A DNA stretch of 64,000 nt from Candidatus Falkowbacteria bacterium (GTDB taxonomy: Bacteria > Patescibacteriota > Patescibacteriia > Patescibacteriales > WJLG01): contig CAVVFV010000008.1 in NCBI GenBank assembly GCA_963747695.1, positions 203,592-267,591 of the forward strand, in the 5' to 3' direction. Under the pieces are notes generated by a model. It searched no databases and had not been told where the DNA came from. It was given only the letters and a program-made list of their open reading frames with translations. Both the position numbers and the translations under genes were made by a program. Positions 11,194 to 46,095 of the stretch are shown one piece after another (positions within the stretch are counted from its first letter, which is position 1; every line of letters starts with the position of its first letter).

Positions 11194-11844
11194 ATGGATA
11201 CTGAGACAAACAAAAGAATGTGTGACCTGATCGGTCGAGAGGCGTTTGCCATTATGGGCAAAATGCTCACGCAGGAGAAGCTTGATGAGTGGCCGGAAAA
11301 TGATTCCGCCGATTCATATTTGATGGAAATAAAAATGCTCCGCCAGCGTCTGCTGCAGAGTTTTTTCTTCAACAGTTTCCCTGCCATCGTCGATTACCGC
11401 GCCGAATTGAAAGATTTCATCCGGCCGCCGGCTTTCCAGGTCAATACGTCGAGTATCGTGTTTGAGCGTTTTGAAAAGATCATCGAGCAGAAGAAAGGGG
11501 TTGAATTCGGTTTTTTCTTTTTGCCTTACGAACTGCGCACGGATAATGTTATCACCGAAATGAGAAAAAGGAATTTGCGGCCGGCTAATCTGCAGGAACT
11601 TTTATACTTCTCCCGAAAATACGTCCGCTTGCTCAAATTCTTTGAATTAAGCAGTCCGTCGGCCAATTATCAAATAAGAGACTATGTTTTTTTTGCCCGG
11701 ACCAAGTATGGCTCGCCGTTTACCGAGGGAGGAAAACCCTATGTCGAAGTCGGAGCCTTTTCCCATTATAGAGAACCTAAAGAAAAGATCATTTGGTATC
11801 CGGACGTTCAGGTAATCCTCGGCGTCTATCGGTCGGTTGCCTGA
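11194..11844 (+). CDS. hypothetical cytoplasmic protein (216 aa)
   Basis: Intact ORF, strong SD aagggagg, own terminator; no motif recognised. Confidence 0.5.
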   Translation: MDTETNKRMCDLIGREAFAIMGKMLTQEKLDEWPENDSADSYLMEIKMLRQRLLQSFFFNSFPAIVDYRAELKDFIRPPAFQVNTSSIVFERFEKIIEQKKGVEFGFFFLPYELRTDNVITEMRKRNLRPANLQELLYFSRKYVRLLKFFELSSPSANYQIRDYVFFARTKYGSPFTEGGKPYVEVGAFSHYREPKEKIIWYPDVQVILGVYRSVA

Positions 11845-23441: not shown

Positions 23442-24425
23442 ATGAATAATTTTGAAAATCAGGCCGTCAGGCGTAATGAATCTTCGAGCCAGAATGAAAC
23501 CGAAGACAGTGCGGATGATAAAAAGATTAAAGATACTCCGGAAGATCTGCGTTATAAATTAGGCCGGATGATGGCCGACATTGCCAAAAAGGGCAATGAA
23601 CAGTTTGGCGGCGAGCCGATCTTGAATAATGATGCCAGTATAAATATGGTCCAGTGGGAAACGGGCAATGGCGGACCGCATTCTCGAAAAGATCGAAAAA
23701 CCGATCGCGATGTGGTAAACGACCATTTGTTGCTTTATAGCGGGCTTGCAAAAATGGAAGAAGGGCCGAAAAGAGATGCGGCGGTTGCCGAATGGGCACA
23801 GAGGAGAGAAATGAGCCTGGCGGCCATGATGGAGAGGGCGATCGCGGCAGTCTGCGATAAAATTGTCGGCGATAAATTCATCATCGTTCTGCCAGCCATC
23901 TACGATGATATCGTCAACGGAATCGACAATATGATGGTCAACAAAGAAACCGGCGATGTGGTTTGCGCTTTCGATGAAGTTAGAGAGTACGAAGGTCTTC
24001 ACCATGGCGAAGCCGGCCACGAAGAAGGCGTTTTAAGAAAAGTCAATGCGCATGAATGGGGGGACAAGACGAGGAAGGAGAAAAAAGAAGAAAAAATTAT
24101 CAATCGCGCCGAGCGGGGCGGGGCGGTAATCAGATATGGTTTCGGCAAGGAAGGCGGCAAATTGGTCAAAAAGAAAATAACCGGCGTGCCGCTGTTTTAT
24201 GTTTCTTTGACCGAGACCGAATCGAAAAGGCTTTTGAATGGGATGGATTATGATTCTGATCAACCCAGCGCCGTTGAATTGGAAATTTTCGATAAGCTGA
24301 TCACGTCATTTGAAAAGCAAGCGGCAGATATAAAAAAAGCCAGGATTAATTCGGACGTCGCGCGTAATCTAGCTAATTTTGAAAAATCATTGGCAGTAAT
24401 GAAAGAATTGCGGAAAAGATTTTAA
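23442..24425 (+). CDS. hypothetical soluble protein (327 aa)
   Basis: Intact ORF, SD gaggagg; no motif recognised. Confidence 0.5.
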   Translation: MNNFENQAVRRNESSSQNETEDSADDKKIKDTPEDLRYKLGRMMADIAKKGNEQFGGEPILNNDASINMVQWETGNGGPHSRKDRKTDRDVVNDHLLLYSGLAKMEEGPKRDAAVAEWAQRREMSLAAMMERAIAAVCDKIVGDKFIIVLPAIYDDIVNGIDNMMVNKETGDVVCAFDEVREYEGLHHGEAGHEEGVLRKVNAHEWGDKTRKEKKEEKIINRAERGGAVIRYGFGKEGGKLVKKKITGVPLFYVSLTETESKRLLNGMDYDSDQPSAVELEIFDKLITSFEKQAADIKKARINSDVARNLANFEKSLAVMKELRKRF

Positions 24426-24737
24426 AAAATTCACCTCTCGAGAGGGGTGGACTCGCGTCGCGCGAGGACGGGGTGTGTTACTGCAGGTTATTAAGGTCAA
24501 AAACATTTGCTACTTTTTTTAAAAAAAGTAGCACAAAAAACTGCTCGCAGGAGAAATTTTGGGACGCTCCGCTATCCCGCCGAGGCGGGACTAGCAAAAT
24601 TTCAAACTTGCTCGCTAGACGCTCGCTCAGACAGTGAAATTTTGCACGGCTTCTACGCTGCGTGATTACGGAAATTTTCCAATGCGCGCTACAAAGAAGT
24701 AAATTAATTTTGATAAATAAAAAAAGCGCCCGAACTC
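24424..24737 (+). repeat. J-repeat copy A (~0.3 kb structured direct repeat)
   Basis: Starts in the stop codon of the upstream gene; shares long blocks with 30721-31075 (tttgcYacttttttt aaaaaaagtRgc, ctccgctatcccgcc, aattttgcacggcttc, cgtgattacggaaattttccaatgcgcgctacaa). Confidence 0.85.
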
Positions 24738-24795
24738 AGAATAGATTAGTATAATTTTTAATTTTTAATCCGTAATTTTTAATTGAATTAAAACT

Positions 24796-26733
24796 ATGCC
24801 AAAAAAAGCAGCAAAAAAGGCCAAAGTGGCGAACGCGGGAGGGGAATTAACTGATGTTCTTTTAGCGAGCAAAAAAATCTACAAGCCGTCGGCAGCGCTG
24901 GTAAAAGACGCGGTGGTGAAGGATTGGGAAAAGGCTCGCCGAGAAGCCGACAAAGATCCGCTCGCTTATTGGGAAGAAGCGGCGAAAGACTTGGTTTGGT
25001 TCAAGCCCTGGACGCAAGTTTTGGACAAATCCCAGAAGCCGTTTTTCAAATGGTTCACCGGCGGCCAGACAAATTTAGCTTATAATGCGATTGACCGCTG
25101 GCTGAATACGCCGAAGGAAGACAAGGTAGCGATCATGGGCGAAGATGAGACCGGCCGGGCTCGCGCCTTCACTTATAAAGAAGTTTCCCGCGAAGTAAAT
25201 AAAATCGTTAATGGGCTGAAAGGCCTTGGCGTGAAAAAGGGTGATCGCATCGCCATCTATATGCCAAATATTCCGGAGATCGCTTTCGCGATGCTGGCCT
25301 GTGCCAAGCTCGGCGCGATGCACTCGGTGGTTTATGCCGGATATTCGGCTGCCGCTTTGAGCAACCGCATCCAAGACGCGCAGGCGAAAGTCGTTTTCAC
25401 TGCCGACGGTTCCTGGCGCCGCGGTAAAGCCATCAACCTGAAAGCCGTGGTCGATGAAGCCATCCAAACTTGTCCCTCCGTGGAAAAAGTTATCGTTACC
25501 AAAAATAATAATCAGGAAGTTCCGTTCAATCCGACTAAGGATATCTGGCTGGCTGATTTTATCAAGGACCAATCCACCGAAGCGAAATGCGAAGCGATGG
25601 AAGCGGAAGACCCGGCGTTTGTTCTGTACACTTCGGGAACAACTTCAAAGCCGAAAGGTGTGGTGCATGTTCACGGCGGCTATCCGGTCGGCGTGTTGCG
25701 CACGATGAAATGGATTTGGGACATCAAGGATTCCGATATTTTTTGGTGTACGGCCGATCCGGGCTGGATCACCGGCCATTCTTATATTATCTACGGGCCG
25801 CTTTTGGCCGGCGTAACGACTTTGATGTATGAAGGCACGCCGGATTTTCCCGAACAGGACCATATCTGGAGCATGGTGGAAAAATATAAAGTAACGATCC
25901 TCTATACCGCGCCGACTTTGATTCGCGCGATGATGAGTTTGGGCGATGAATTGCCGGACAAGCACGAGATGCCGACTTTGCGCCTCTTGGGTTCAGTGGG
26001 CGAGCCGATCAATCCTAAGGCTTGGACATGGTATTTTAAACATATCGGCAAAAGCAAACGACCGGTGCTGGATACCTGGTGGCAGACGGAAACCGGCTGC
26101 AATATGATTTCGCCTTTGCCGGTGACGCCGCTCAAAGCGGGTTCCGCGACTAAGCCGTTTCCGGGAATCCAAGCTGATATTTTGGATATGAAGGGCAAAA
26201 AAGTTCCGGCCGGAAAGGGCGGCTATCTGGTGATCAAAACTCCCTGGCCTTCAATGATCCGCACGGTGTTCAACGCGCCGGAAAGATATCTGAAAACTTA
26301 TTGGCACGATATCAAAGGCGTCTTCTTTACCGGCGATATCGGTTTCAAAGACAAGGACGGTTATTTCTTCATTCAGGGCCGCACTGACGATATGTTGAAA
26401 ATTGCCGGTCATAGAATAGGCACCGCCGAAGTTGAATCAGCTTTTGTTTCCCATCCGGCCGTGGCCGAATGCGGTGTGATCGGCGTGCCTGACGAAATCA
26501 AAGGTGAAGTCATCAAGGCGTTCTGTATTCTGAAAAAAGGAATCATCGGCGATGATAAATTGAAAGAAGAATTGAAGATGCATGTGCGCCATACGATCGG
26601 TCCGGTCGCGGTTATGAAAGACGTCGCCTTTGTTGACTCTTTGCCGAAAACCAGAAGCGGCAAGATAATGCGCCGCATCTTGAAAGCCAAAGAGCTTGGC
26701 CTGCCGTTAGGCGACACTAGTGCGCTGATATAG
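24796..26733 (+). CDS. acs: acetyl-CoA synthetase (AMP-forming)
   Basis: YTSGTTSKPKGV, WWQTETG, FFTGDIGFKDKDGYFFIQGRTDD, C-terminal SLPKTRSGKIMRRIL with the regulatory lysine. Confidence 0.95.
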   Translation: MPKKAAKKAKVANAGGELTDVLLASKKIYKPSAALVKDAVVKDWEKARREADKDPLAYWEEAAKDLVWFKPWTQVLDKSQKPFFKWFTGGQTNLAYNAIDRWLNTPKEDKVAIMGEDETGRARAFTYKEVSREVNKIVNGLKGLGVKKGDRIAIYMPNIPEIAFAMLACAKLGAMHSVVYAGYSAAALSNRIQDAQAKVVFTADGSWRRGKAINLKAVVDEAIQTCPSVEKVIVTKNNNQEVPFNPTKDIWLADFIKDQSTEAKCEAMEAEDPAFVLYTSGTTSKPKGVVHVHGGYPVGVLRTMKWIWDIKDSDIFWCTADPGWITGHSYIIYGPLLAGVTTLMYEGTPDFPEQDHIWSMVEKYKVTILYTAPTLIRAMMSLGDELPDKHEMPTLRLLGSVGEPINPKAWTWYFKHIGKSKRPVLDTWWQTETGCNMISPLPVTPLKAGSATKPFPGIQADILDMKGKKVPAGKGGYLVIKTPWPSMIRTVFNAPERYLKTYWHDIKGVFFTGDIGFKDKDGYFFIQGRTDDMLKIAGHRIGTAEVESAFVSHPAVAECGVIGVPDEIKGEVIKAFCILKKGIIGDDKLKEELKMHVRHTIGPVAVMKDVAFVDSLPKTRSGKIMRRILKAKELGLPLGDTSALI

Positions 26734-26750
26734 CTCATAACACATAACAC

Positions 26751-26953
26751 TTTGGCTATGGCAGAGTCTCCGCCTCGGGACTCTGCCCGGTCGGATCGCG
26801 GCAGAGTCCGCTGACGCGAGACTCTGCCGAAGCCAATATGGGGAGGGAATATCGATTTTATGTTTGGTTCCGTCGCAGTCTCCCGTAAGGGGACTGCGAC
26901 GCAGGCGAATCAATTTTCGCCGCAGTCCGAGGCGAGACTGCGGCAAGACCAAA
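26751..26953. repeat. GC-rich nested hairpin array (two units of outer stem + two hairpins)
   Basis: ttggct[ggcagagtc..gactctgcc][ggcagagtc..gactctgcc]agccaa, then tttggt[cgcagtc..gactgcg][ccgcagtc..gactgcgg]accaaa. Confidence 0.75.
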
Positions 26954-26979
26954 GATTTTGGCGATGATACGATAATTTT

Positions 26980-27534
26980 ATGAAGCGAGTTTATATAATT
27001 CATGGCTGGGAAGCAAATCCGGAGAGCAATTGGTTTCCTTGGTTAAAGAAAGAATTAGCAAAAAAAGGTTTTCAGGCGGAAATTCCCGAAATGCCGAATT
27101 CGGCGCACCCTGTTTGTGAAGATTGGGTTAATTATCTGAAAAAAATCGTTGGCAAGGTTGATGAAGACACTTTCTTCGTCGGCCACAGTTTGGGCCCGAT
27201 CGCGATTATGCGATTTTTGGAAACCTTGCCGGCTCGCGAGAAAGCCGGCGGCGTGATTATGGTTGCGGGTTTTTCCGAATCCTTGGGAATCCCGGAAACA
27301 GAGAGTTTTTTCCAGCAGCCGCTTGATTATGCTAAGCTTAAAAGTTCGGCCAAAAAATTTGAAGTTATCAATTCGGACAATGATCCTTATGTGCCGATAA
27401 ATAGAGGGGAGATTTTACGAGACAAACTTGGCGCAGAGCTAACTATTATGCATGGTCATGGTCATCTCAATGCCGGCAACGGATTTTTCGAACTGCCGAT
27501 CGTTTTGGAAAAGATATTATTATTGAGTAAATAA
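26980..27534 (+). CDS. YdeN/RBBP9-type alpha/beta serine hydrolase
   Basis: 184 aa; IIHGWEANPESNWFPWL start and nucleophile elbow GHSLG. Confidence 0.65.
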   Translation: MKRVYIIHGWEANPESNWFPWLKKELAKKGFQAEIPEMPNSAHPVCEDWVNYLKKIVGKVDEDTFFVGHSLGPIAIMRFLETLPAREKAGGVIMVAGFSESLGIPETESFFQQPLDYAKLKSSAKKFEVINSDNDPYVPINRGEILRDKLGAELTIMHGHGHLNAGNGFFELPIVLEKILLLSK

Positions 27535-27636
27535 TTGGAAATTTACATGACAATTTTTACTAATTTTATAGCAAAATAACAAAAACTTTCCAAGTATTTG
27601 TTTGGTGCCAAATTAATAGTTTATTAGAAAATTCAT

Positions 27637-27987
27637 ATGAGGAAGCCTTTCAAAAAACATTTAAAAACAATCCCAGTCGAAGAAGCTCACGAGGGAAGTG
27701 GAAAAAGGCAACTTATTTTATCGAAAAATGATGCGGTATCAGAACATTTTCAAGCCATGACAAAAGGTTTTCTCAAGGCAGGCTCAATGTTTGATTGGCA
27801 TTTTCATGAAAATATTGATGAATTTTTCCTGGTACTAAAAGGTGAAGGATTTATTGAGTTTAAAGGTGGAGAAAAATTCGAATATTCTCCTGATGACCTC
27901 GTCTATATCCCAGATGGAATAGAACATAAAATTAAAGCCACTGGAAAAGAAGAAAGCGAATTTTTCTTTATTAGACTTAATAATTAA
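27637..27987 (+). CDS. cupin-domain protein
   Basis: 116 aa; cupin motifs WHFHENIDEFFLVLKGEG and YIPDGIEHKI. Confidence 0.6.
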   Translation: MRKPFKKHLKTIPVEEAHEGSGKRQLILSKNDAVSEHFQAMTKGFLKAGSMFDWHFHENIDEFFLVLKGEGFIEFKGGEKFEYSPDDLVYIPDGIEHKIKATGKEESEFFFIRLNN

Positions 27988-28031
27988 AATATTAAATTTG
28001 TAATTAATAATTTGTAATTTGTAATTATTCC

Positions 28032-30722
28032 ATGGAAACCGCCTATCCCTTAAGTGAAAGAAAATTAGATAAGATTTTTAATCCGAAGACGATTGCCGTC
28101 ATCGGCGCTTCCGACCGCGAAGGCGGCGTGGGCAACGCGCTGATGAAGAATCTGATCGGCAATAATTTCGGCGGCATCGTTTATCCGGTTAATCCGGCGC
28201 GCGAGAGCGTGGCAGGCATCAAAGCTTACCCGAAAGTTTCCGACATTCCCGATAAAATCGATTTGGCGATCATCGCCACTCCGGCGCCTACCGTTACCGC
28301 CATCGTCGAGGAATGCGGCCAGGCCGGAGTTTCCGGAATAATTATTATTTCCTCGGGGTTTGACGAGATCGGCGCCAAGGGCCATAAGATGAGCGAGGAA
28401 ATTTTGTCGACCGCCCGCGAATATGGGATGCGCATCATCGGCCCGAACTGCCTGGGATTTATCCGGCCGTCGATTCATTTGAACGCCAGCTTTGCCAACA
28501 AGATGGCCTTGCCCGGTCATATCGCTTTCATTTCTCAGTCTGGCGCGCTCTGCACGGCCATTCTTGACTGGTCGTTGAAAAATAACGTCGGCTTTTCGCA
28601 ATTCGTTTCCATCGGTTCCAACATCGATATTTCTTTCCATGATCTGATTGATTATTTCGGCGACGATCCGGAAACGGACAGTATTTTGATTTATATGGAA
28701 TCGCTGACCGAGGCGCGGAAATTCATGTCAGCTGCCCGCGCTTTTTCCCGGAAAAAACCGATCGTGGTTTTGAAAGTCGGGCGCACCGAAGCCGGTTCCC
28801 AGGCGGCTAAGTCGCATACCGGCGCGATCACCGGCAACGATTCCGTTTATGACGCGGCTTTCGAGCGCGCGGGAATAATCCGCGTTGATGGCGCTTTGGA
28901 TTTGTTCCACGTGGCCAAGATGCTGGCGATGCAGCAACGTCCGGCGGATAACCGTGTCGCGGTCATTACCAATGCCGGCGGTCCGGGCGCGATTGCCGCC
29001 GACTGGCTGGCTATGAAAGGCGGACGCTTGGCCCAATTATCCCATACCACCGTGGCCGAGCTGAAAAAATTCTTGCCGGCTGCCGCTTCCACAGTCAATC
29101 CGGTGGATATTTTGGGTGATGCCGATCAGCATCGTTACCGGCAAGCGGTGGAATTATGTCTGGCTGATCCGAACGTTGACGCGGCTTTGGTTATTCTGAC
29201 GCCGCAGGAGATGACCAGCCCGACCGATGTCGCCCGACAGATCGTTTCGATAAAAAATAAAACCGGCAAAACTATGTTCGCTTCCTGGATGGGCGGCGAT
29301 GACGTTGCCGAAGGGCGGGTGATTTTGGAAAAAGGGCACATCCCGATTTACCGCACTCCGGAGGAAGCAGTGGATATTTTTATGTATGTTGACAGTTATC
29401 GCCGGCGTTTGGAATTCTTGAAGGAAACTCCGGGGTCGGTGCCTCATGCTTTTCAGCCGAAGACAGAAAAGAATCGTGAGCTGATTGAAAAAGTTATTGC
29501 CGATCATCGCACTGTGATGACCGAAGCCGAAGCCAAGGAAATGATCGCCAATTATGGAATTCCGGTCGCCAAGAACGGTACAGCCAATTCGGCTACTGAA
29601 GCCGGAGCAATCGCTTTCCAGATCGGCTTCCCGGTAGTGATGAAAATTCTCTCGCCGGATATTTTGCATAAAACCGATATCGGCGGCGTGAAGTTGAATA
29701 TCAGTTCGCGCTCCGAAGCGGAAGCGGCCTATCATGAAATTCTGGCCGGCGCGAAAAAAGGCGCACCGAAAGCTAAGATTGATGGCGTCTTTGTCGAGGC
29801 AATGACCAAAAAACGTTATGAGCTGCTGATCGGCTGCAAGAAGGATGAAATTTTCGGCCCGGCGATCGTCTTCGGCATGGGCGGCGTAGCCGTCGAAGTC
29901 TTCCGCGACACGGCGGTCGGCTTGCCGCCTTTGAATATGTCTCTGGCTTTGAAGATGATCCAGGAAACCAAAATTTATAAATTACTGGCAGGCTATCGGG
30001 GCATACCGGGCGTGGATATTGAAGCGATCCAATTCTTGCTTTATAAATTCGCTTATCTGGTCGCTGATTTTCCCGAGATCAAAGAATTGGATATCAATCC
30101 GTTCGCGGTCGATGAGAACGGCGGCGTGGTTTTGGACGCCAAAGTTATTTTGGATGAAAAAGTTTTGGGCGTCAAACATAAGCCCTACGCGCATTTGGTA
30201 ATTTCCCCTTATCCCAAAGAGCTGGAAAAAAATATTGTTTTGAAAAATAAGAAAAAAGTTTTGTTGCGCCCGATCCGTCCGGAAGATGAAAAATTAGAGC
30301 AGGAAATGATCGATAATTTTTCCGCTCGCACCATGCGTGATCGTTTTTTGGGGAGAGTGGCTAAGGTCAATTTGGAGATGCTGCGCGGCTTCACCCAGAT
30401 CGATTATGACCGTGAGATCGCCCTGGTCGGCGTGTTGACGGAGCGCGGCCGGGTGCGTTTTATCGGCGTGGTCAGATTGATCGCCGATCCTTACAATGAA
30501 TCGGCTAGCATGGCGATCGCTATTGCCGATCCCTGGCAAGCGCTTGGTTTAGGCGGCGAGATGGTCGATTATATTTTGGATATCGCCCGCGTCCGCGGCT
30601 TGAAAAAAGTCTGGGCCGAATTTTTTCCATCCAACGAGCGGATGAAAAAGATTTTGACTAAACGGAATTTTACCCTCAAGGAGCGCGGCAAGACGATGAT
30701 CGGGGAATTGGAACTTGGATAA
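28032..30722 (+). CDS. Pat-like protein: ADP-forming acetyl-CoA synthetase (alpha+beta) fused to a C-terminal GNAT acetyltransferase
   Basis: CoA-binding IAVIGASDREGGVG, phosphohistidine loop AAKSHTGAITG, ATP-grasp region, GNAT tail LRPIRPEDE...; 896 aa. Confidence 0.85.
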   Translation: METAYPLSERKLDKIFNPKTIAVIGASDREGGVGNALMKNLIGNNFGGIVYPVNPARESVAGIKAYPKVSDIPDKIDLAIIATPAPTVTAIVEECGQAGVSGIIIISSGFDEIGAKGHKMSEEILSTAREYGMRIIGPNCLGFIRPSIHLNASFANKMALPGHIAFISQSGALCTAILDWSLKNNVGFSQFVSIGSNIDISFHDLIDYFGDDPETDSILIYMESLTEARKFMSAARAFSRKKPIVVLKVGRTEAGSQAAKSHTGAITGNDSVYDAAFERAGIIRVDGALDLFHVAKMLAMQQRPADNRVAVITNAGGPGAIAADWLAMKGGRLAQLSHTTVAELKKFLPAAASTVNPVDILGDADQHRYRQAVELCLADPNVDAALVILTPQEMTSPTDVARQIVSIKNKTGKTMFASWMGGDDVAEGRVILEKGHIPIYRTPEEAVDIFMYVDSYRRRLEFLKETPGSVPHAFQPKTEKNRELIEKVIADHRTVMTEAEAKEMIANYGIPVAKNGTANSATEAGAIAFQIGFPVVMKILSPDILHKTDIGGVKLNISSRSEAEAAYHEILAGAKKGAPKAKIDGVFVEAMTKKRYELLIGCKKDEIFGPAIVFGMGGVAVEVFRDTAVGLPPLNMSLALKMIQETKIYKLLAGYRGIPGVDIEAIQFLLYKFAYLVADFPEIKELDINPFAVDENGGVVLDAKVILDEKVLGVKHKPYAHLVISPYPKELEKNIVLKNKKKVLLRPIRPEDEKLEQEMIDNFSARTMRDRFLGRVAKVNLEMLRGFTQIDYDREIALVGVLTERGRVRFIGVVRLIADPYNESASMAIAIADPWQALGLGGEMVDYILDIARVRGLKKVWAEFFPSNERMKKILTKRNFTLKERGKTMIGELELG

Positions 30723-31075
30723 AAAATTCCCCTCTTGGGAGGGGTGCCGAGCCCGGCGAATAGGTGCGGGTTTATTCCCGACATTATTTCAAATATCTTT
30801 GCCACTTTTTTTAAAAAAAGTGGCGCAAAAAATCGCGCGCTGGACAAATTTCCTATCACTCCGCTATCCCGCCAATGCGGGACTAGCAAAATTGCTATAC
30901 TTGTCCCGCTTTTATTAATAATATTATAATAAGGAGGCGGGACTTCGAACAACGCAATTTTGCACGGCTTCCCTGTCCCGCCAGCGGCGGTGATACGCTT
31001 CGTGATTACGGAAATTTTCCAATGCGCGCTACAAGGAAATTTATTATTTTGACAAATAAAAAAGCGCCGGAACTC
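30721..31075 (+). repeat. J-repeat copy B
   Basis: Starts in the stop codon of the Pat-like gene; collinear with 24424-24737, with one extra inner hairpin gtcccgc...gcgggac. Confidence 0.85.
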
Positions 31076-31115
31076 GAGGTGAGTTCGGCGGCGCTTGCGG
31101 ATGAGTATGATGCCG

Positions 31116-31271
31116 TTATTTTTTCGGCGTTGCGGCTGGTTCCTGTGGAAGTGGTGGCAAGCGTTTCAATATTTCAGCCGTATTTTTCCTGACACCTTCA
31201 AGGTTCAACAGTATACACATCAACATGAGAATAACGGCGATAAAAAGGATATTTAAAACTATTGGGTTCAT
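31116..31271 (-). CDS. possible 51-aa single-pass membrane peptide
   Basis: MNPIVLNILFIAVILMLMCILL... from internal ATG of ORF 31116-31346. Confidence 0.3.
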   Translation of the reverse strand: MNPIVLNILFIAVILMLMCILLNLEGVRKNTAEILKRLPPLPQEPAATPKK

Positions 31272-31348
31272 AAAACCTTCCAGAAGAATGTGAAAGTGCA
31301 AGATTTGATATATTAATATAATATCATATTTAACTAATTTTGTCAATA

Positions 31349-33001
31349 ATGTGGGAATCGATTAAGAAAAATAGGGAAATCGCGGTTTTTATCGCATTTT
31401 TAATCATCGGGTTGGCTGTTTACGCCAACTCTTTTGGCAACCAGTTTTTTTGGGATGATAATGACGAGATCGTTAATAATATTTACGTCCAGCATTTTGA
31501 TGTCAGCAAGATGTTTTCGCAGAGCATGATTTCCGGCGCCGGGCAAACCGATAATTATTACCGGCCGATCCTGCTTTTGTCGTACGCCGTGGATTATCAG
31601 CTTTGGGGAATGAATCCGTTCGGTTTCAATCTGATCGATGTGCTGCTGCACATCTTTAACGCGTGGCTGATTTTTATTTTATTATATTTCCTTTTGTCGT
31701 TGCGGCAAACCGCGTCCACTGAACCACCCTCCAACTCCTCCTTTGAGAGGAAGGGGGTTTGGCTGGCGTTTTTGCCGGCGCTGATTTTTTTGGTTCACCC
31801 GCTAAACACCGAAGCGGTCGATTATGTTTCCGGGCGAGCCGACGTCTTGTACGCTTTTTGGGCGCTTTTATCGCTTTTATTCTATTATTATTTTTTTCAA
31901 GCCAAAAACGTCAAGGGTAAGATCATCAACTATTCGGTCGCGGTGGTTTTTTTTATTTTTTCCCTGCTTACCAAAGAAACGGCTGTCGTGCTGCCGTTCC
32001 TGGCCGTGCTGATGGAGTTGGTTTTCCTGGCCAAGGGTGATTGGCGGACCAAAACGAAAACGGCCGCCAAAAATTCCTGGCCGTTTTTTTTGGTTTTAGC
32101 AGTTTATCTCCTGCTGCATTTGACGGTTTTTAATTTCAGCCATCTGGCCGGCGTTCCGATCGGTTGTCAGGGGGAATATTGCTCTTTCGGGATCGTTAAG
32201 CGGTTTTTGGTTTTCGGATCGGTGACCTTGAATTATTTTCAGATTTTATTCGTGCCGCTCGGTTTACATATGGAAAGGGCGGTGACGGAGTTCGGTTCGG
32301 TTTATTCCTGGAAAACTCTGGCGGCCTGGTTCGCCGTGCTGGTCTGGGCGGCGGTAGCGGTCATCTTTTGGAAAAAATCCCGGAGCATCGCCTTCGGATT
32401 ATTTTGGTTCTTCATCCTGCTGCTGCCGACTTCGGGAATCTTAGTCAGGATGAATTATCCGACCTACGAGCATTTTCTTTATCTGCCGATGATCGGATTT
32501 TGGCTGGCCCTCGGCGGCTTGATCTGCCTCGCCGCTGATAACCTTAAAAACGACCGGGTTTTACTCTTGGCGAAGATATTATTTTATGTTATGCTAAGCG
32601 CTTGTGTGGTTTTTTGGGGAATCCTGACGATCCGGCGCAACTTGATCTGGCATGATCCGATAACTTTCTACGAAAATAATTTAAAGTATTCGCCGCAGAG
32701 TTTTATCGAGCATACTAATCTGGGAATCGCTTACGATAATGCCGGACGACCAACCGAAGCGATAGCCCAATATCGCCAAGCGATTGGCATTGATGATGTT
32801 TATCCGCAAGTGCATTACGATCTGGCCAACGCTCTGGTGGGAGCGCAACAATACGACCAGGCGGAAAAGGAATATTTGCTCGCCATCGCCATGGATCCGG
32901 AATTTATTTTGCCTTACCGGAGTTTATATGATTTGTATAGTTATTTAGGGGAGAAGGATGAGGCAGGAGAAATTTTAAAAAAGATGCCCGGCAATAATTA
33001 A
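31349..33001 (+). CDS. GT-C-like membrane glycosyltransferase with C-terminal TPR repeats (TMTC/PMT_2-like)
   Basis: First loop FFWDDNDEI ... NYYRPILLLSY; about 11 TM spans; TPR tail YDNAGRPTEAIAQYRQAIGIDD...YDQAEKEYLLAIAMDP. Confidence 0.7.
   Translation: MWESIKKNREIAVFIAFLIIGLAVYANSFGNQFFWDDNDEIVNNIYVQHFDVSKMFSQSMISGAGQTDNYYRPILLLSYAVDYQLWGMNPFGFNLIDVLLHIFNAWLIFILLYFLLSLRQTASTEPPSNSSFERKGVWLAFLPALIFLVHPLNTEAVDYVSGRADVLYAFWALLSLLFYYYFFQAKNVKGKIINYSVAVVFFIFSLLTKETAVVLPFLAVLMELVFLAKGDWRTKTKTAAKNSWPFFLVLAVYLLLHLTVFNFSHLAGVPIGCQGEYCSFGIVKRFLVFGSVTLNYFQILFVPLGLHMERAVTEFGSVYSWKTLAAWFAVLVWAAVAVIFWKKSRSIAFGLFWFFILLLPTSGILVRMNYPTYEHFLYLPMIGFWLALGGLICLAADNLKNDRVLLLAKILFYVMLSACVVFWGILTIRRNLIWHDPITFYENNLKYSPQSFIEHTNLGIAYDNAGRPTEAIAQYRQAIGIDDVYPQVHYDLANALVGAQQYDQAEKEYLLAIAMDPEFILPYRSLYDLYSYLGEKDEAGEILKKMPGNN
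31722..31757 (+). repeat. diverged K-family element inside the TPR-glycosyltransferase
   Basis: aaccaccctccaactcctcctttgagaggaaggggg versus consensus aaccaccccNagNcccctccttNNaaaggagggg. Confidence 0.5.
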
Positions 33002-33093
33002 TTGCTATACTGTTATATTGCTATATTGTTAGGCAGCGAGAAAAATTTTTTTGCAAAATAACAATATGACAATATAGCAATATAACAATATGT
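33001..33093. repeat. A-family word palindrome
   Basis: attgctatactgttatattgctatattgtt ... aacaatatgacaatatagcaatataacaatatg; ends 4 nt before murJ ATG. Confidence 0.7.
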
Positions 33094-33097
33094 CAGC

Positions 33098-34771
33098 ATG
33101 ATTAAGAATTTTTTCAACAAACAGATTAATAGCATTACCGTGGCGGCGATCTTGGTCGCTTTGTCTTCGCTATTAAGCCGTTTGCTCGGAGTGTTTCGTG
33201 ATCATATTTTGGCGGGGCAGTTTGGCGCCGGTCCGACGCTCGATGCTTATTATGCCGCGTTCCGCGTTCCCGATCTGGTTTTCAATTTGCTGGTGCTCGG
33301 GGCGCTCTCGGCCGGTTTAATCCCGGTCTTTACCGGTTTGATCAAAGATTTTAAGGGTACGATGACCAACCTTTTCGGCTTGGAAAATACCGAGGCTTGG
33401 CGACTGATCAATAATATTCTGAATTTGATTCTAATCTCGATGGCCGTGCTTTCGGTGTTAGGAATAATTTTTGCCGACCCGATCATCAAAACGCTGATCG
33501 CTCCGGGATTCTCGCCGGCAATGCAGGCCAAGACCGCCGGCTTGAGTCGGATAATGTTCTTATCGCCGATCATCTTGGCCGTCTCCAGTATTTTCAGCGG
33601 CGTCTTGCAGACCTTCAAAAGATTTTTTATCTATTCGCTGGCGCCGATTATGTATAATGTCGGAATTATCTGCGGCGCCTTATTTTTAGTGCCGCTGTGG
33701 GGGATCTATGGTTTGGCCTGGGGCGTAGTTTTCGGCGCCTTGCTGCATATGTTCATCCAATTGCCGGCGGTTTTCACATTAGGTTACAAGTATCGCCCAT
33801 TCCTAAATCTGCGCGATGTCCATCTGCGGAAGATCCTGATGATGATGGTGCCGCGGACTTTGAGCCTGGCGGTTTCTCAATTGAATCTGGTGGTGATCAC
33901 TTTCATCGCTTCCGGGTTGGCTTCCGGCTCGCTGACGGTTTTCAATCTGGCCAATAATCTGCAATATTTTCCCATCGGCATTTTCGGCGTTTCTTTCGCC
34001 ATCGCCGCCTTTCCTTCGCTTTCTTCGGCCGCGGCTGATAATAAAAGATTGGTGCGGAATTTTTCTTGGACCATCAGGCAGATTTTATTTTTTATCGTGC
34101 CGTCGACTATTTTGCTTCTGGTCTTGCGGGCGCAGATCGTCCGCGTCATCCTCGGCTCCGGCCAATTCACTTGGCAGGACACGATGCTGACTTTCAACAC
34201 TTTGGGATTTTTCACCATCAGTCTTTTTGCTCAAGCGACCGCGCCTCTGCTGATCAGAGTCTTTTATGTCCGTGAAGATTCAACTACGCCATTCGTCATC
34301 GGAATAATTTCCGTGGCGGCGGAAAGGATAATCGCGCTCTATCTGGTGAACCGGATGGGCGTCGGCGGATTGGCCTTGGCTTTTTCGCTGGCCAATATTT
34401 TGAATTTTATACTCTTGTGGCTGATGCTCCATATTAAGCTGGGCGATCTGCTGGAAGGTAAGATCTTGGTTTCCGTCTTAAAATTTTCCGTGGCCGGATT
34501 GATCTGCGGTTTTATCGCCCAGGAAATGAAAGGTATCGTCTGGCCTTTTATCGATATGACTAGGTTCTTGGGTGTTTTAGTCCAAGGTTCGGCGGCCGGC
34601 CTTTGCGGTTTGCTTGTTTACGCCCTGTTCTGCTGGCTGCTTAGGAGCGAGGAAATGGCCAGCTTCATCTCCTCGGCCAAGAGCCGCCTTTTGCGGATTA
34701 TGGCGAAAAATCCGCCGGCCTTGCTCCAGTCGATCGACTCGATCGATGACGTGGATAAGAATAGTTTGTAA
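33098..34771 (+). CDS. murJ: lipid II flippase MurJ/MviN
   Basis: LLSRLLGVFRDHILAGQFGAGPTLDAYYAAFRVPDLVFNLLVLGALSAGLIP, 14-TM MOP architecture. Confidence 0.85.
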   Translation: MIKNFFNKQINSITVAAILVALSSLLSRLLGVFRDHILAGQFGAGPTLDAYYAAFRVPDLVFNLLVLGALSAGLIPVFTGLIKDFKGTMTNLFGLENTEAWRLINNILNLILISMAVLSVLGIIFADPIIKTLIAPGFSPAMQAKTAGLSRIMFLSPIILAVSSIFSGVLQTFKRFFIYSLAPIMYNVGIICGALFLVPLWGIYGLAWGVVFGALLHMFIQLPAVFTLGYKYRPFLNLRDVHLRKILMMMVPRTLSLAVSQLNLVVITFIASGLASGSLTVFNLANNLQYFPIGIFGVSFAIAAFPSLSSAAADNKRLVRNFSWTIRQILFFIVPSTILLLVLRAQIVRVILGSGQFTWQDTMLTFNTLGFFTISLFAQATAPLLIRVFYVREDSTTPFVIGIISVAAERIIALYLVNRMGVGGLALAFSLANILNFILLWLMLHIKLGDLLEGKILVSVLKFSVAGLICGFIAQEMKGIVWPFIDMTRFLGVLVQGSAAGLCGLLVYALFCWLLRSEEMASFISSAKSRLLRIMAKNPPALLQSIDSIDDVDKNSL

Positions 34772-34862
34772 AAATTACTAATCATCCATTAATAAAGGGC
34801 ATCTTGAAAAAGTGCCTTTTTTATTGATTGACCTTTAGTAAAAAAAACCGTAGTATAATAAT

Positions 34863-34980
34863 ATGATGCGAATACTACGAATTGTTCGCGAATACTACAA
34901 ATTAATTTAACGAATTAATATAGAATAATTCGATAAATAGTTCGCTGTATTCGCGAAAAATTTGTAGTATTCGCATTATG
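34863..34980. repeat. B-family ~120-bp palindromic element
   Basis: atgatgcgaatactacgaattgttcgcgaatactac ... gtattcgcgaaaaatttgtagtattcgcattat; 7 nt before lepA ATG. Confidence 0.8.
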
Positions 34981-34987
34981 TTTATTT

Positions 34988-36780: not shown

Positions 36781-36890
36781 AATCCGAACCCACAAAATAT
36801 CGCGAATACTACGAACATGATAACGAATTGATAAGTTCGGTTCGATAAAAGTTCGCAGTATTAGCGCATATAATTCGTAGTATTCGGATT
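36781..36890. repeat. B-family variant element
   Basis: aatccgaa...cgcgaatactacgaac ... ttcgtagtattcggatt. Confidence 0.6.
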
Positions 36891-36903
36891 ATATTATAAT
36901 AAT

Positions 36904-37089: not shown

Positions 37090-38870
37090 ATGAATAAGAT
37101 CTGGCAAATCGCGCCCAAAATCCGCGAAGGATTTTTCAAGAAATTTCCCGAATACGACCGGGTGATTTTGCAATTGCTGCATAACCGCGGTTTAAGAGAG
37201 AGCGAGGAGATGGATCTTTTTTTGCACGGACATTTTGAAAATAATTTCAGTCCCTTCTTATTCAATAAGATGGAAGAGGCGATCAATCTGACTATCACTC
37301 ATATCAAAGCGGGTGATAAGATTTGCATTTATGGCGATTACGATGCTGACGGTATGACCGCTTCGGCTCTCTTGGCTGAGGTGTTGGCGACTTTGCGCGC
37401 TGACTGTTTCGTTTATATTCCTGACCGCGGTAGCGAAGGATATGGCTTGCATCGGGAGGCGATCGACAAGGCGATAAAAAAAGGAGCGAAGCTTTTAATA
37501 ACCGTCGACGGCGGCATCCGCAATAAGGGCGAAGTCGAATACGCCCGAGCTCGCGGGCTGGAAACAATCATCACCGATCATCATACCCCGCCGGAGTCTT
37601 CAGCCAATCTGCCCGATTGTCTTGATCGTCAATCCGCACCTCAAAGGAGAAAAATATCCTTTTAAGTTCTTGGCCGGAGTCGGCGTGGCTTTCAAATTTT
37701 CCCAGGCCTTGGTGGAGCGGTCGAAATTGAACGCCGAGCAGAAAAAGAAAATTTTGGAAAAAACTTTGGACTTGGTGGCGATCGGCACCGTGGCCGATTG
37801 CGTCACTTTACTGGGAGAAAACCGGCTGCTTTTAAAAAAAGGACTGGAAATTTTAAACGAGACTAAAAGAGTCGGTTTGAAAGAATTGATGAAGGCGGCC
37901 AAGATCGAGGGCAGGCAGCTGGAGGCTTGGAATATCGGTTTTCAGATCGCGCCCCGGCTTAACGCTTCGAGTCGGATGGGTTCGGCCGGCAATGCCTACA
38001 ATCTGCTTTCGACCAAGGATAAGAATGAGGCGGAAAAAGAAGCGCAATTGCTGAACGATCGCAATCTGCGGCGGCAGAAGGAAACGGAAGAGATCGTCGC
38101 CGAGGTGGAGTTGCAGATCAAAAAGCAGTTCGAAGAAAAAATTATCATCGGCATCTGTCCGGAAAAAGCCAAGCCGTGGAACGAAGGGATCGTCGGTCTG
38201 GTAGCCGGCCGGATTGCCGAAAAATATTATAAGCCGACTTTGATCATTACTAAATCGGAAAAAGGGTTCAAGGGTTCTGGCCGTTCGATCGAAGAATTCA
38301 ATCTATTCAAAGCAATCGAAGAAGCCGGAGATTTGCTGGGCAATCACGGCGGGCATCCGATGGCCGTCGGTTTCAATGCCAGCGAGGCTAACCTTCATCT
38401 TTTCGCCGAAAAGATCAGAAAAATCGCCAAACGAGATTTGGGTCACTTGCAGCTCGAGCCGAAATTGAAGATCGACTGTGAAATCATCCTCGAGGATGCC
38501 AGCCGCGACTTTTTATCGCGAAGTCCAGAGATTGGCGCCGTTCGGCCAGCATAATCCCGAACCGAAATTTTTGAGTGAAAATATCCAGATTAAGGATATG
38601 ATGAAAATGGGGGCGAACGGCCAGCATATTAAATTCCGTTTTGGCCTGCCGATGGCTGCGGGCAGGCGGTCTGGGGGGATCGGCTTTAATCATGCCGAGG
38701 AATGGGCGGATTTCAAGATCGGTGATTTGGTCGACGCGGTTTATACTTTGGACGAGAATGAATTCAACGGCAATACCAGCCTGCAATTCAAATTGATCGA
38801 TCTGAAATTGCACGGCAGCGAGTTGATCAAGAAAGGACATTGGTCGGCGGAGACGGTATATATAGATTGA
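37090..38870 (+). CDS. recJ: single-stranded-DNA-specific exonuclease RecJ; two frame breaks as assembled
   Basis: DHH motifs IYGDYDADGMTAS, ITVDGG, ITDHHTP; DHHA1 GGHPMAVG. Track pieces 37090-37665, 37622-38554 and 38478-38870 join into ~590 aa if one nt is skipped at ~37621 and one T of T5 38510-38514. Confidence 0.85.
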
Positions 38871-38965: not shown

Positions 38966-39387
38966 ATGATTCAAAAAAAACAAAAACTTATTATTTATAC
39001 TGATGGCGGCGCGCGGGGAAATCCGGGTCCGGCGGCGATTGGCGCGGTTTTAAAGGACGAGAAAGGGGAGCTAGTCGCGGAAATTTCCGAGTATATCGGC
39101 GAGACCACTAATAATCAAGCCGAATATCGGGCGGTGGTTGCGGCCATGGAAAAAGCTAAGAAACTTGGCGCCGAGGAATTGCAATTTTTTTTGGACAGCG
39201 AATTAGTGGTTAAGCAGCTTAACCGCGAATACAAAGTCCGCGATAAAGAACTGGCGCCGTTTTTCATGAAAATATATAATGCCGCGATGGGATTTAAGAA
39301 AGTAACCTTCAAACATATTCGCCGGGAACTTAATGCGGAAGCGGAAGGTTGGTGAATGAAGCGCTGGATAATAAAAAAGTTAATTAG
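38966..39387 (+). CDS. rnhA: ribonuclease HI; 1-nt gap near the 3' end as assembled
   Basis: IYTDGGARGNPGPAAIG, TNNQAEYRA, DSELVV. Conserved EADRLVNEAL tail is readable only after a 1-nt deletion at ~39345, and then stops at TAG 39385-39387. Confidence 0.8.
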
Positions 39388-39531
39388 TCGATTGGTTAAT
39401 TAGTTAATTGGTTGTAAAATATTCAATTTCTCAATATAAAAAAACCGTCAGCCTGTATTGTGCCGATGGTTTTTTATATTGATAAATTATTAACTCTTAA
39501 ACTAATTAACCAATCGACTAGTCAACCAATC
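39379..39531. repeat. word palindrome (taattag words) enclosing a bidirectional terminator
   Basis: Arms gttaattagtcgattggttaattagttaattggttg / aactaattaaccaatcgactagtcaaccaatc; central hairpin aaaaaaaccgtcagc...gccgatggttttt (39438-39476). Confidence 0.65.
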
Positions 39532-40450
39532 ATATTTTTCGATATTCTTGTCCGCCAAGCTCTTGGATATATTCGATTTCTTTTTTCCCCTCCTCGCCTT
39601 TGAACAGATGCTTGAAGCGGGCCTGGATTTTCAGATATTCTTCGACTTTGATCGGAGTTTGAATTTTAGAAACGTTAACGAGCTGGCCGTCGACATATTC
39701 CAGAAGGGGATAAAGGCCGGTTTGCACTGCCAATTTTGCGACTTGCATCGCGTCGGAAGTTTTGATGCCAAAGCCGGGAATGCAGGGTGACATTATCTGG
39801 ATATATCCCGGTCCCTGGGTTTCAATGCCTTTTCTGACTTTGGCGGTAATATCCAAAGGGTAGCCGGCGGTGGATTGGGCGATATATTTTACGCCGTGCG
39901 CTAAGGCGATGGCGAGCATATCTTTTTTGCGTTGGGTTGAACCGATCGAGGCCGAACCGGCCGGAGTCGTCGTAGTGGAAGCGCCGGGCGGCGTGGCGCC
40001 GGAAGCCTGAACGCCGGTATTGGAATAAACTTCCGTATCGTAGCAAATATATAAAATATTTTCGCCCCTTTCCCACATCCCCGAAATCAAGCCAAAGCCG
40101 ATATCAAAAGTCGAGCCGTCGCCTCCCTGGACGATGACCTTGGTATTCCGTAGGTCCGCAATACTTTGCGGACCAGTCGGTTTGCCCGCAAGGTATTGCG
40201 GGCCTACGGATTTTATTTTGAAATTCAAAGCGGCTCGGATGCCGCTCGCGACCGCGGCGGGATTTTCGAACAAAGAATGGATCCAGGGAATTTTCCAGGC
40301 CGATTCCGGGTAAGGAGTGGTGGTCACTTCCAAACAGCCGGTGGCGTTGGCGATAATCACATCCGGGCCCATCGCCCGGGAAGCGGCTATGGCCGCGATC
40401 ATCTGCCCGCAGCCGGCGCAGGCGCGGTGGCCCGGAGCGATTAAGCACAT
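39530..40450 (-). CDS. porB: pyruvate/2-oxoacid:ferredoxin oxidoreductase, beta (TPP-binding) subunit
   Basis: APGHRACAGCG, QGGDGSTFDIGF, CYDTEVYSNTG; the start may lie further upstream (see findings). Confidence 0.85.
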   Translation of the reverse strand: MCLIAPGHRACAGCGQMIAAIAASRAMGPDVIIANATGCLEVTTTPYPESAWKIPWIHSLFENPAAVASGIRAALNFKIKSVGPQYLAGKPTGPQSIADLRNTKVIVQGGDGSTFDIGFGLISGMWERGENILYICYDTEVYSNTGVQASGATPPGASTTTTPAGSASIGSTQRKKDMLAIALAHGVKYIAQSTAGYPLDITAKVRKGIETQGPGYIQIMSPCIPGFGIKTSDAMQVAKLAVQTGLYPLLEYVDGQLVNVSKIQTPIKVEEYLKIQARFKHLFKGEEGKKEIEYIQELGGQEYRKI

Positions 40451-41901: not shown

Positions 41902-41910
41902 AAAATTTAT

Positions 41911-42019
41911 ATTGTTATATTGTTGAGTTACAAAAAATTATTTCATTGAAATAAATTTTTTACTAAAAAGCTTAAAATCGTTGCGTAGCAATATAACAAT
42001 ATAGCAATATGACAATATT
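41911..42019. repeat. A-family word palindrome (left arm truncated)
   Basis: attgttatattgtt ... cgttgcgtagcaatataacaatatagcaatatgacaatat. Confidence 0.65.
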
Positions 42020-43328: not shown

Positions 43329-43330
43329 AT

Positions 43331-44360: not shown

Positions 44361-44369
44361 TTCGATTGG

Positions 44370-45276: not shown

Positions 45277-46095
45277 ATGAAATTAATATCTTGGAACGTC
45301 AACGGCATCAGGGCCGCGGTTAAAAAAGGCTTTGTCGATTTTTTGCAAAACGAAAGGCCGGATATCTTGTGTTTGCAGGAAATCAAGATTTCCGATTCAG
45401 CTAAGCGCGAAGAAGTTTTTGATTTTGCCGGTTACCAGGAATTTTGGCATTCGGCCGTCAAGCCGGGGTATGCCGGGACGATGACCTTAGTTAGGGATAA
45501 TTTAATCAGTGAAACGGCCGTAACACACCCCGTCTCGCGAGGCGCGAGCCACCCCTCTCGAGAGGGGAATAAATTTATCGGGCTCGTGGAATTTCCCGAT
45601 GATCCGGAAGGCCGGGTGCAGATTTTGGAATTCGAGAAATTTTATTTGTGCAACATCTATTTTGTCAACGCCCAGCGCGGTTTGACCAGGCTGAAACATA
45701 AAATGGAATGGGAGGATCGCCTGTTGAAGTTCTTGAAAAAATTGGATAAGAAAAAATCGCTGGTCATTTGCGGCGATTATAATGTCGCTCACGAGGAAAT
45801 CGATATCGCCCGTCCCAAAGAGAATAAAAAAAATGCCGGTTTCACCCCGGAGGAGCGGGCCTGGATGACTAAATTTCTTAAAGCCGGTTTCGTCGACGTC
45901 TTCCGTAACCAGCATCCGGACAAGATCCAATATAGTTGGTGGACTTTTTATGCCAATGCCCGGGCCCGCAACATCGGCTGGCGCATTGACTATTTTTGCG
46001 TTTCAGCGTATCTTGTTAAGTCAGTCAAAAGTTCTTTTATAATGGATCAAGTCCAGGGATCGGACCATTGTCCGGTCGGCGTCATTTTAAAATAA
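45277..46095 (+). CDS. xth: exodeoxyribonuclease III with a 17-codon repeat-element insertion
   Basis: SWNVNGIRA, LCLQEIK, EGRV, CGDYNVAH, WRIDYF, GSDHCPV. Confidence 0.9.
   Translation: MKLISWNVNGIRAAVKKGFVDFLQNERPDILCLQEIKISDSAKREEVFDFAGYQEFWHSAVKPGYAGTMTLVRDNLISETAVTHPVSRGASHPSREGNKFIGLVEFPDDPEGRVQILEFEKFYLCNIYFVNAQRGLTRLKHKMEWEDRLLKFLKKLDKKKSLVICGDYNVAHEEIDIARPKENKKNAGFTPEERAWMTKFLKAGFVDVFRNQHPDKIQYSWWTFYANARARNIGWRIDYFCVSAYLVKSVKSSFIMDQVQGSDHCPVGVILK
45520..45570 (+). repeat. K'-type GC-rich element inserted in frame in xth
   Basis: gtaacacaccccgtctcgcgaggcgcgagccacccctctcgagaggggaat; nearly the reverse complement of intergenic 24430-24481. Confidence 0.85.

Follow-up and report, generated by a model that had tools for sequence, protein, structure and literature searches.

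A hairpin-forming intergenic repeat family of Patescibacteria, found around acs and a Pat-like gene

Patescibacteria have very small, tightly packed genomes, in which interspersed repeats have hardly been described. Here we analyze a 64-kb stretch of a Candidatus Falkowbacteria contig (CAVVFV010000008.1, positions 203,592 to 267,591; this whole stretch is referred to as the window) that carries two related repeats of about 0.3 kb, copies A and B. The genes at this locus encode a 327-amino-acid (aa) protein (23442-24425), acs (24796-26733), a serine hydrolase (26980-27534), a cupin (27637-27987) and a Pat-like CoA-ligase/ATP-grasp/GNAT protein (28032-30722), followed by a TPR protein, MurJ and LepA. 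A first-pass annotation, made from the letters alone, had placed acs, the serine hydrolase, the cupin and the Pat-like gene between two collinear repeats, and both the gene calls and the repeats are borne out. Copy A (24424-24737) and copy B (30721-31075) align at about 79-80% identity with several indels, and the 5' part of the repeat yields a BLAST E-value of 3e-22, well above any chance similarity. The homology opens, as had been described, inside a stop codon, at the last bases of TAA at 24423-25 and 30720-22, and closes at ...GAACTC (24737 and 31075). The reported hairpins are likewise in place: gctac-T7A7-gtagc (24509-24532) corresponds to gccac-T7A7-gtggc (30801-30824), tcccgc-cgag-gcggga (24575-24590) to tcccgc-caat-gcggga (30867-30882), and a gcaaaat...attttgc pairing surrounds a variable hairpin in A and B alike.

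Is each of these repeats a single unit? Comparison with copies in other contexts corrects this view: each 0.3-kb copy is a composite of a small module, the core of a dispersed family, and a tail. The module resembles repetitive extragenic palindromic (REP) sequences and Rickettsia palindromic elements (RPE). The core comprises an upstream hairpin, H1, and a long hairpin with stems P1 to P5. The parts are the following.

24424..24484, plus strand: GC-rich, REP/RPE-like module of about 55 nt, opening in the stop codon of the 327-aa gene
24497..24707, plus strand: core of copy A, chimeric (family profile, nhmmer E = 3.9e-56)
24509..24532, plus strand: H1 hairpin of copy A, GCTAC-T7A7-GTAGC
24594..24645, plus strand: P5 stem of copy A, GCAAAATTTCA / TGAAATTTTGC, enclosing the variable apical hairpin
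24708..24737, plus strand: 3' tail of copy A, about 30 nt, common to copy B only, ending in a left terminator half, AAAAAAAGCGCCCGAACTC
30721..30785, plus strand: REP/RPE-like module in a long form with a TTTATTCCCGACATTATT tail, opening in the stop codon of the Pat-like gene
30789..31047, plus strand: core of copy B, type I arms (family profile, nhmmer E = 1.8e-61)
30801..30824, plus strand: H1 hairpin of copy B, GCCAC-T7A7-GTGGC
31058..31094, minus strand: intrinsic terminator of a small minus-strand gene, GCGCCGGAACTC-GAGGT-GAGTTCGGCGGCGC followed by a minus-strand T-run

Repeat search and profile search agree on exactly two core copies in the 64 kb. The module at 24424-24484 reads AAAAAATTCACCTC-TCGA-GAGGGGTG, a GC hairpin and ACGGGGTGTGTTA; it is 89% identical to window positions 45517-45570 on the minus strand. 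The same GC-rich module follows the orthologue of the 327-aa gene in two relatives (L027 and L028; L numbers denote the comparison loci), and the long form also lies 5' of the core in L005, L021 and copy 1 of L028. In copy A, the 5' arm of the core is of type II (GCTCGC..GAAATTTTGG..GACGC) and the 3' arm of type I (GTGAT..GGAAATTTTCC..GCGCGC), while its P5 is compensatory relative to the GCAAAATTGC/GCAATTTTGC, ..ATCGC/GCGAT.. and ..TCCC/GGGA.. of other copies. Copy B contains extra hairpins at 30867-30882 and 30970-30992, and its apical hairpin is AT-rich and 40 nt long. The terminator lies outside the repeat family: its left half forms the end of copy B as first delimited, it is intact in the window only after B, and the full hairpin recurs upstream of acs at L027 12106-12145 and L028 11564-11602.

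The gene that this terminator serves is a small, hydrophobic, unannotated open reading frame (ORF) within 31116-31346 on the minus strand, about 51 aa from its first Met, with a strong promoter-like TTGACA-17-TATTAT at 31346-31318 on that strand and the terminator at 31094-31058. Similar small minus-strand ORFs are found at L027 12164-12379, L027 19980-20207 and L028 11617-11838. Two independent public assemblies of the same sequence stop at the repeat: L001 ends at window position 24596, inside copy A, and L002 at 24459, in the adjoining module. Such breaks are the usual sign of a repeat collapsing the assembly graph; the repeat disrupts assemblies.

We next asked how far the core extends beyond this locus. 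Species-representative genomes were scanned with a 22-mer from the most conserved block, which returned three copies on three different contigs of one related metagenome-assembled genome (Patescibacteria STD1_31, JAQUPS01, GCA_028716485.1). A metagenome scan with a 20-mer returned 21 loci, comprising 10 true copies, 4 chance matches in coding DNA and 7 stretches of archaeal-type 16S rRNA. A family profile built from nine copies, which recovers copies without the exact word, added a second copy in L011, two on another STD1_31 contig (L028) and a divergent short copy in L040. From this one genome scan and one metagenome scan, the family amounts to 19 copies plus the divergent one, on 15 Patescibacteria contigs, with at least five copies in one genome. 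The core is intergenic, usually just past a stop codon, and was never seen inside a gene. Its neighbors are unrelated housekeeping genes, including those for MnmA, DeoC/FtsZ, a macro-domain protein, hemerythrin, a HAD hydrolase, a nucleotidyltransferase, LytR, Der, adenylate kinase (Adk), Hsp20, DUF1361 and RNHCP. Twelve of 16 copies point the same way as the gene upstream, often beginning 2-6 nt past its stop codon, and the remaining four are antisense to both neighbors. L011 carries two direct copies 2.2 kb apart.

The element has no match in the collections searched. Rfam 15 gave no match at gathering score over the whole window, and with relaxed Rfam settings nothing above chance level matched the element in copy A or in L003/L028; tRNA and tmRNA scans found nothing there. 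Phage and plasmid collections searched by BLAST and two scans of viral contigs held no counterpart, and we found no paper on interspersed repeats or miniature inverted-repeat transposable elements (MITEs) in Patescibacteria. The core is an undescribed hairpin-forming intergenic repeat family of some members of this phylum.

Compared across contexts, the family unit measures about 200 nt, starting with TCAAnATCTTT and ending with YAYAAGGAAATTTATT about 20 nt beyond the last stem; the window cores span about 210-260 nt (24497-24707 and 30789-31047). The unit begins with H1 (GCCAC-T6-7/A6-7-GTGGC), a perfect palindrome with phased T-run and A-run that is found in every copy, fragments included. 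An A-rich linker of 9 nt leads to the long irregular hairpin, whose two arms of about 55 nt form stems P1-P5, and the AT-rich tail YAYAAGGAAATTTATT closes the unit. In the commonest subtype the stems are these (5' / 3').

P1: GCGCGC / GCGCGC
P2: UGGA-c-AAAUUUCC / GGAAAUUU-UCCA
P3: AUCAC / GUGAU
P4: GAAACC / GGUUUC
P5: GCAAAAUUGC / GCAAUUUUGC

Between P3 and P4 lies an 8x8 internal loop (yCCGCUAu / uACGCUgc), in which CCGCUA and ACGCU are invariant. The apical hairpin is unrelated between copies in sequence and length: L014 lacks it, and in L021 it reaches about 110 nt. The element has no coding capacity. Although a GGAAA motif followed by an ATG is conserved, the frame so opened stops after 5-7 codons in most copies, and a small ORF was rejected. 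No sigma-70-like promoter points into the element, and it holds no convincing internal promoter or terminator and no consistent terminator.

Structure-preserving variation, which the first-pass annotation had seen in two copies and read as selection on structure, holds across the family. RNAalifold recovers H1 and P1-P5. Counted on a fixed structure of 51 pairs in 15 aligned copies (758 cells), standard pairs make up 95.1% of cells, and 11 of the 51 pairs show changes on both sides. None of 500 shuffles reached the observed values by any measure, and sliding the 3' partners by 1-3 columns left pairing at only 34-56%. The third stem pair of H1 covaries (C:G in 12 copies, U:A in two, A:U in one). 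Entire stems are swapped between subtypes: P2 is GGAcAAATTTCC/GGAAATTTTCC or GAAAAATTTTGG/CCAAAATTTTTC, and P3 is ATCAC/GTGAT or GACGC/GCGTC. The STD1_31 subtype in L028 combines GCGAGC/GCUCGC in P1 with GAAAAAUUUUGG/CCAAAAUUUUUC in P2 and GACGC/GCGUC in P3, and the L040 variant of about 100 nt has GAAAAAUUUAC/GUAAAUUUUUC as its P2. The arms of subtypes I, II and III thus differ by fully compensatory changes, with the internal loop and P4 unchanged throughout. These results support selection for pairing in the stems.

Which molecule is selected? Covariation of this kind would fit a folded RNA, a single-stranded DNA or paired inverted protein-binding sites alike, and the strand evidence is contradictory. 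On the plus strand of the element, G:U pairs outnumber A.C mismatches by 29 to 12; for 15 of 16 copies the fold of the reverse strand is the more stable one, by a mean of 5 kcal/mol, because the internal loop there becomes a run of G.A mismatches.

To place the repeats in the history of the locus, orthologous neighborhoods were taken from five related genomes via homologues of the 327-aa protein, to which the aa identities below refer.

L027 (78% aa): 325-aa gene, cupin, DUF559, small ORF, acs, hydrolases, Pat, small ORF, TPR; no core copy in 21 kb
L028 (STD1_31, 51% aa): 303-aa gene, DUF559, small ORF, acs, Pat, MurJ, LepA; two core copies
L031 (48% aa): 301-aa gene, ACD-like CoA ligase (no acs/Pat), TPR, MurJ; no core copy
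L032 (43% aa): different neighborhood, no acs/Pat; no core copy
L034 (34% aa): 301-aa gene, acs, 385-aa gene, hydrolase, Pat, TPR, MurJ; no core copy

In L034 the spacers at the two block boundaries measure 17 and 85 nt. The two L028 copies, in opposite orientation and 5 kb apart, occupy positions unlike those of the window, one between acs and Pat and one inverted between MurJ and LepA. The first-pass annotation had proposed that the repeats delimit a cassette as recombination or mobility sequences. In the comparison with related genomes that it had itself suggested, the same genes were found without flanking repeats (L027, L034), and the L028 copies are shifted or inverted, so that the proposal does not hold. 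Gene order kept without repeats in L027 and L034, and on the flanks in L031, together with copies elsewhere in L028, indicates that the gene block is an old syntenic part of the chromosome in which repeats come and go. The flanking of acs, hydrolase, cupin and Pat is incidental, and for annotation these are ordinary chromosomal genes, not an acquired cassette. The cupin gene itself differs in position: in the window it lies between hydrolase and Pat, and in L027 a stretch made up of the final ~100 nt of the 325-aa gene and the module occurs twice, once on either side of it (10859-10992 and 11400-11505), which suggests that it may have been inserted or moved there.

Neither window copy has the other as its closest relative. 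B is nearer to L012 (86% identity) and L003 (85%), A to L019 (81%), and the two share 79%, which argues against a recent duplication of one from the other. Copy A is a mosaic of a 5' arm of the STD1_31 subtype and a P5 like that of L019. Both window copies share two characters present in no other copy, a TCCCGCC-NNN-GCGGGA hairpin and the 30-nt tail; these are best explained by gene conversion between A and B within this genome.

Turnover of the core is not confined to the acs/Pat neighborhood. L019 and L024 carry a core after hsp20, with arms 98-99% identical beside a gene that is 88% identical, and their similarity ends abruptly at the 3' end of the element. In the hsp20 loci L036-L043, which encode proteins with 87-90% identity to the L019 one, no copy follows hsp20 and the downstream DNA is unrelated. 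Fragmentary copies occur in L005 and L022, and arm chimeras with broken P1 or P3 in copy A and in the second L011 copy (L011b). In L014 and in copy 2 of L028, the small module is inserted, inverted, between H1 and P1. In L004 and L018 the copies follow a terminator that belongs to the upstream gene, a position that speaks against an obligatory role as RNA. Absences, fragments, chimeras, and post-terminator and antisense copies fit a spreading and decaying repeat better than an RNA gene. Such turnover between close relatives, with recombination within genomes, makes the core family a marker of genome dynamics in uncultured bacteria.

We think it reasonably probable, and somewhat better than an even bet, that the core is a non-autonomous interspersed palindromic element, closest in kind to enterobacterial repetitive intergenic consensus (ERIC) sequences, REPINs (REP doublets) and MITEs. 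Copies would come and go, lose parts and recombine, both between and within genomes, landing in intergenic DNA and often fused to the small module. Their spread would rely on a trans-acting enzyme that recognizes the folded or inverted-repeat arms, which would explain why arm sequence and arm pairing are conserved together; if so, that enzyme is worth finding. In transcribed copies the hairpins may act incidentally as 3' structure, as an exonuclease barrier or an aid to processing or termination, and sequence exchange by gene conversion would be the only local signal between A and B.

How does the core compare with these known systems? ERIC sequences are non-coding and intergenic, form a long imperfect hairpin, are conserved between species in sequence and not in position, and have indel variants at fixed internal sites; they are not known to have a transposase. 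The core agrees with ERIC, the intergenic repeat units (IRU) of about 127 bp known as imperfect palindromes from enterobacteria, in all of these traits: it is an imperfect palindrome, restricted to intergenic DNA, found across species at non-conserved positions and with internal-insertion variants. It differs in having no sequence similarity, a length of ~200 nt, an extra upstream T7A7 hairpin, another host phylum and subtypes with compensatory arms. Like a REPIN, its long hairpin is a doublet of inverted arms, here of ~55 nt, near gene 3' ends and dispersed in intergenic DNA. In contrast to REP systems, no gene is linked to the core and no REP-associated tyrosine transposase (RAYT; Y1 HUH) was seen: a search for Y1_Tnp, limited to the ~50 window ORFs and 20 flanking ORFs of other loci, gave no match. 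Like the Correia MITEs of Neisseria, the core is small, non-autonomous and hairpin-forming, is probably co-transcribed with its neighbors, differs by presence and absence, and exists in full-length and internally deleted forms. Unlike these, its inverted repeats are not terminal, since H1 and TCAAnATCTTT lie outside the left arm and YAYAAGGAAATTTATT outside the right, and no target-site duplication has been defined; none was readable, the compared regions (MurJ-LepA; downstream of hsp20) being non-homologous. The loci compared contain no autonomous relative with a transposase, a dedicated search across genomes for arm pairs 0.5-3 kb apart not having been made. Taken together, the core forms a new family whose kind is broadly known and whose architecture is unusual.

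Several points weigh against this interpretation. No mobilizing enzyme was identified among the ORFs scanned, and the loci compared offered no clean pair of filled and empty sites. The internal position of the arms departs from the classic MITE layout. The bias of copies to the strand of the upstream gene, the internal-loop bases that stay invariant across subtypes, and the excess of arm over gene identity in L019 and L024 could also fit a functional RNA under purifying selection.

A more specific version, possible though doubtful, would have the core as a new class of structured nucleic-acid element whose invariant loop and covarying arms are read by a dedicated protein, in the form of an RNA domain or of folded single-stranded DNA serving as substrate for transposition, and which travels with a REPtron-like ~0.6-kb DUF559 unit whose solo modules spread, even in frame into essential genes. 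This version draws on the small module, which is separate from the core. Its plan, over about 55 nt, is ATTCCCCTC, four or five bases, GAGGGGTG, a GC hairpin and ACGGGGTGGGTT. Tandem arrays of it occur in L027 and L028, related genomes carry it many times, and the window has one further copy.

45505..45570, minus strand: third module copy, an in-frame insertion of 66 nt / 22 aa (NLISETAVTHPVSRGASHPSRE) inside an Exo_endo_phos (exonuclease III-like) ORF, 45277-46095

The STD1_31 orthologue of this gene (L005 677-1495) is without the insertion of the window and carries another, of 18 aa, at a different place. Such orthologue-specific in-frame insertions clearly point to a mobile module. Here, and for the module only, the likeness is to RPE, which are palindromic and stand in frame within genes, adding 18-22 aa; sequence and host phylum differ, and the core was never seen in a gene.

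In addition, inverted CCCCTC modules bracket all six of the DUF559 (PF04480) nuclease genes found in five genomes, with forward modules upstream and reversed modules over the 3' end, giving units of ~0.6 kb with inverted ends of ~50 nt.

L027 11455-12105: DUF559 unit
L028 10907-11573: DUF559 unit
L018 6245-6814: DUF559 unit
L036 14110-14742: DUF559 unit
L039 2261-2788 and 13800-14570: two DUF559 units

The inverted modules around a nuclease gene recall the REPs around a RAYT gene in a REPtron, with the difference that the gene here encodes a DUF559 nuclease of PD-(D/E)xK type. By this analogy, DUF559 and its modules are possibly a REPtron-like or insertion-sequence-like mobile element with a PD-(D/E)xK nuclease fold. 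We found no paper linking DUF559 to repeats, and the ~50 window ORFs scanned included no DUF559 protein.

Could purifying selection instead be keeping the core as a functional structured RNA, be it a trans-acting small RNA encoded in several copies or a 3'-UTR (untranslated region) domain that works in cis and binds a protein via its invariant loop? We regard this main rival as unlikely. It is kept alive by the orientation bias, with many copies starting a few nucleotides past a stop codon, and by the invariant unpaired bases amid compensatory changes in H1 and P1-P5; arms far more conserved than the synonymous sites of the neighboring hsp20, an apical hairpin that varies in length like an expansion segment, and the excess of G:U over A.C on the plus strand speak for it as well. 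Against it stand the lack of a promoter-like site, of a consistent terminator and of any Rfam match, the four copies antisense to both neighbors and those beyond the upstream terminator, the persistence of truncated and chimeric forms with broken P1 or P3, and the coming and going of copies between very close relatives, and the better folding of the reverse strand contradicts the G:U signal.

Less probable still is a site acting at the DNA level, as a protein-binding or architectural site or a cruciform, for instance for a nucleoid protein or one like integration host factor (IHF) at the T7A7 palindrome, kept on both strands. The perfect H1 palindrome with its phased runs, retained even in fragments, the occurrence of copies in both orientations and the ambiguous strand evidence agree with such a role. 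Many copies also have a WATCAANNNNTT-like string before H1, which we take to resemble the IHF consensus. However, 55-nt arms in which mismatches are conserved and changes are compensatory are more than a binding site needs; copies are few, positions are not conserved, and no candidate protein was found.

Finally, that A and B are attC-like or other boundaries of a mobile 6-kb acs/Pat cassette is highly improbable: direct repeats 6.3 kb apart around functionally linked genes, the private hairpin and tail of A and B, and the paired copies in L011 and in the STD1_31 neighborhood would suit it, but the ancestral gene order exists without repeats, the STD1_31 copies lie inside and outside the block with one inverted, A and B are not nearest relatives, and the block consists of four genes, with acs having its own promoter-like TATAAT (24750-24755). 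As with attC sites and CALINs (clusters of attC sites lacking an integron integrase), the core is an imperfect palindrome with structure conserved above sequence and a variable center, and its copies can be direct repeats around genes. It differs in that the R'' (RYYYAAC) and R' (GTTRRRY) sites are absent from both strands of all 15 aligned copies, most copies are solitary, and the flanked block is an ancestral four-gene synteny, also present in repeat-free relatives, and no integron cassette array. Among the ~50 window ORFs scanned there was no transposase, integrase, reverse transcriptase or RAYT, and the earlier remark that the locus has no transposase or integrase stands.

Several other candidates were tried and rejected. 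A diversity-generating retroelement (DGR) lacks its reverse transcriptase here, since the RVT_3 match at 38966-39355 is an RNase H, and the 110 mismatches between A and B involve all base types and are not adenine-specific. 6S RNA is usually encoded by a single-copy gene of about 180 nt, with a large central bubble between a closing and a terminal stem. The outline of the core (23-bp closing stem, 8x8 loop) is superficially like it, but no 6S match was obtained at E<=10, and at least five copies in one genome, truncated copies and the ~100-nt variant oppose it too. A replication-strand bias, as in single-stranded DNA transposons, was not seen: 13 copies have a positive and 6 a negative GC skew along the element strand, and the two L028 copies, only 5 kb apart, are opposite. 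A functional tie to acetyl-CoA genes was considered, as acs/Pat have a copy nearby in two genomes and PFOR-beta is followed by one in L005; it was rejected, copies elsewhere having unrelated neighbors and four relatives with the neighborhood carrying none. The 20-mer GGAAATTTTCCAATGCGCGC of the metagenome scan is identical to a stretch of archaeal-type 16S rRNA (CCTACGGGGTGCAGCAG...GGGAAATTTTCCAATGCGCGCAAGCG), as found in L006, L009, L010, L015, L017, L023 and L025. We judge this match coincidental, because the similarity stops beyond the 20-mer, no small-subunit rRNA model matches the element, and the same scan returned the four chance matches in coding DNA.

Other features of the window and of its relatives were noted in passing. 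Intergenic regions of the window contain long inverted repeats of tandem 8-nt units, in at least three families (ATATTGYT, CGAATACTA and AATTAGTT types). One group lies at 6745-6849, 33000-33102, 41910-42029, 43222-43344, 44262-44374, 45206-45291 and 52485-52593; further groups lie at 9058-9178, 34852-34982, 36801-36893 and 51529-51665, and at 5486-5575 and 39374-39539. Possible explanations are long hairpins of terminator type and arrayed binding sites. Two genes are split: leucyl-tRNA synthetase into ORFs 46959-47759 and 47877-49811, the second with an embedded NUDIX domain, and a RecJ-like DHH/DHHA1 protein into the overlapping ORFs 37090-37665 and 37622-38554. Both could be frameshifts, true splits or assembly errors. 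The RNase P RNA of STD1_31 (bacterial class A; L003 456-1011) measures 556 nt against a model of 367 positions, and hence carries large insertions.

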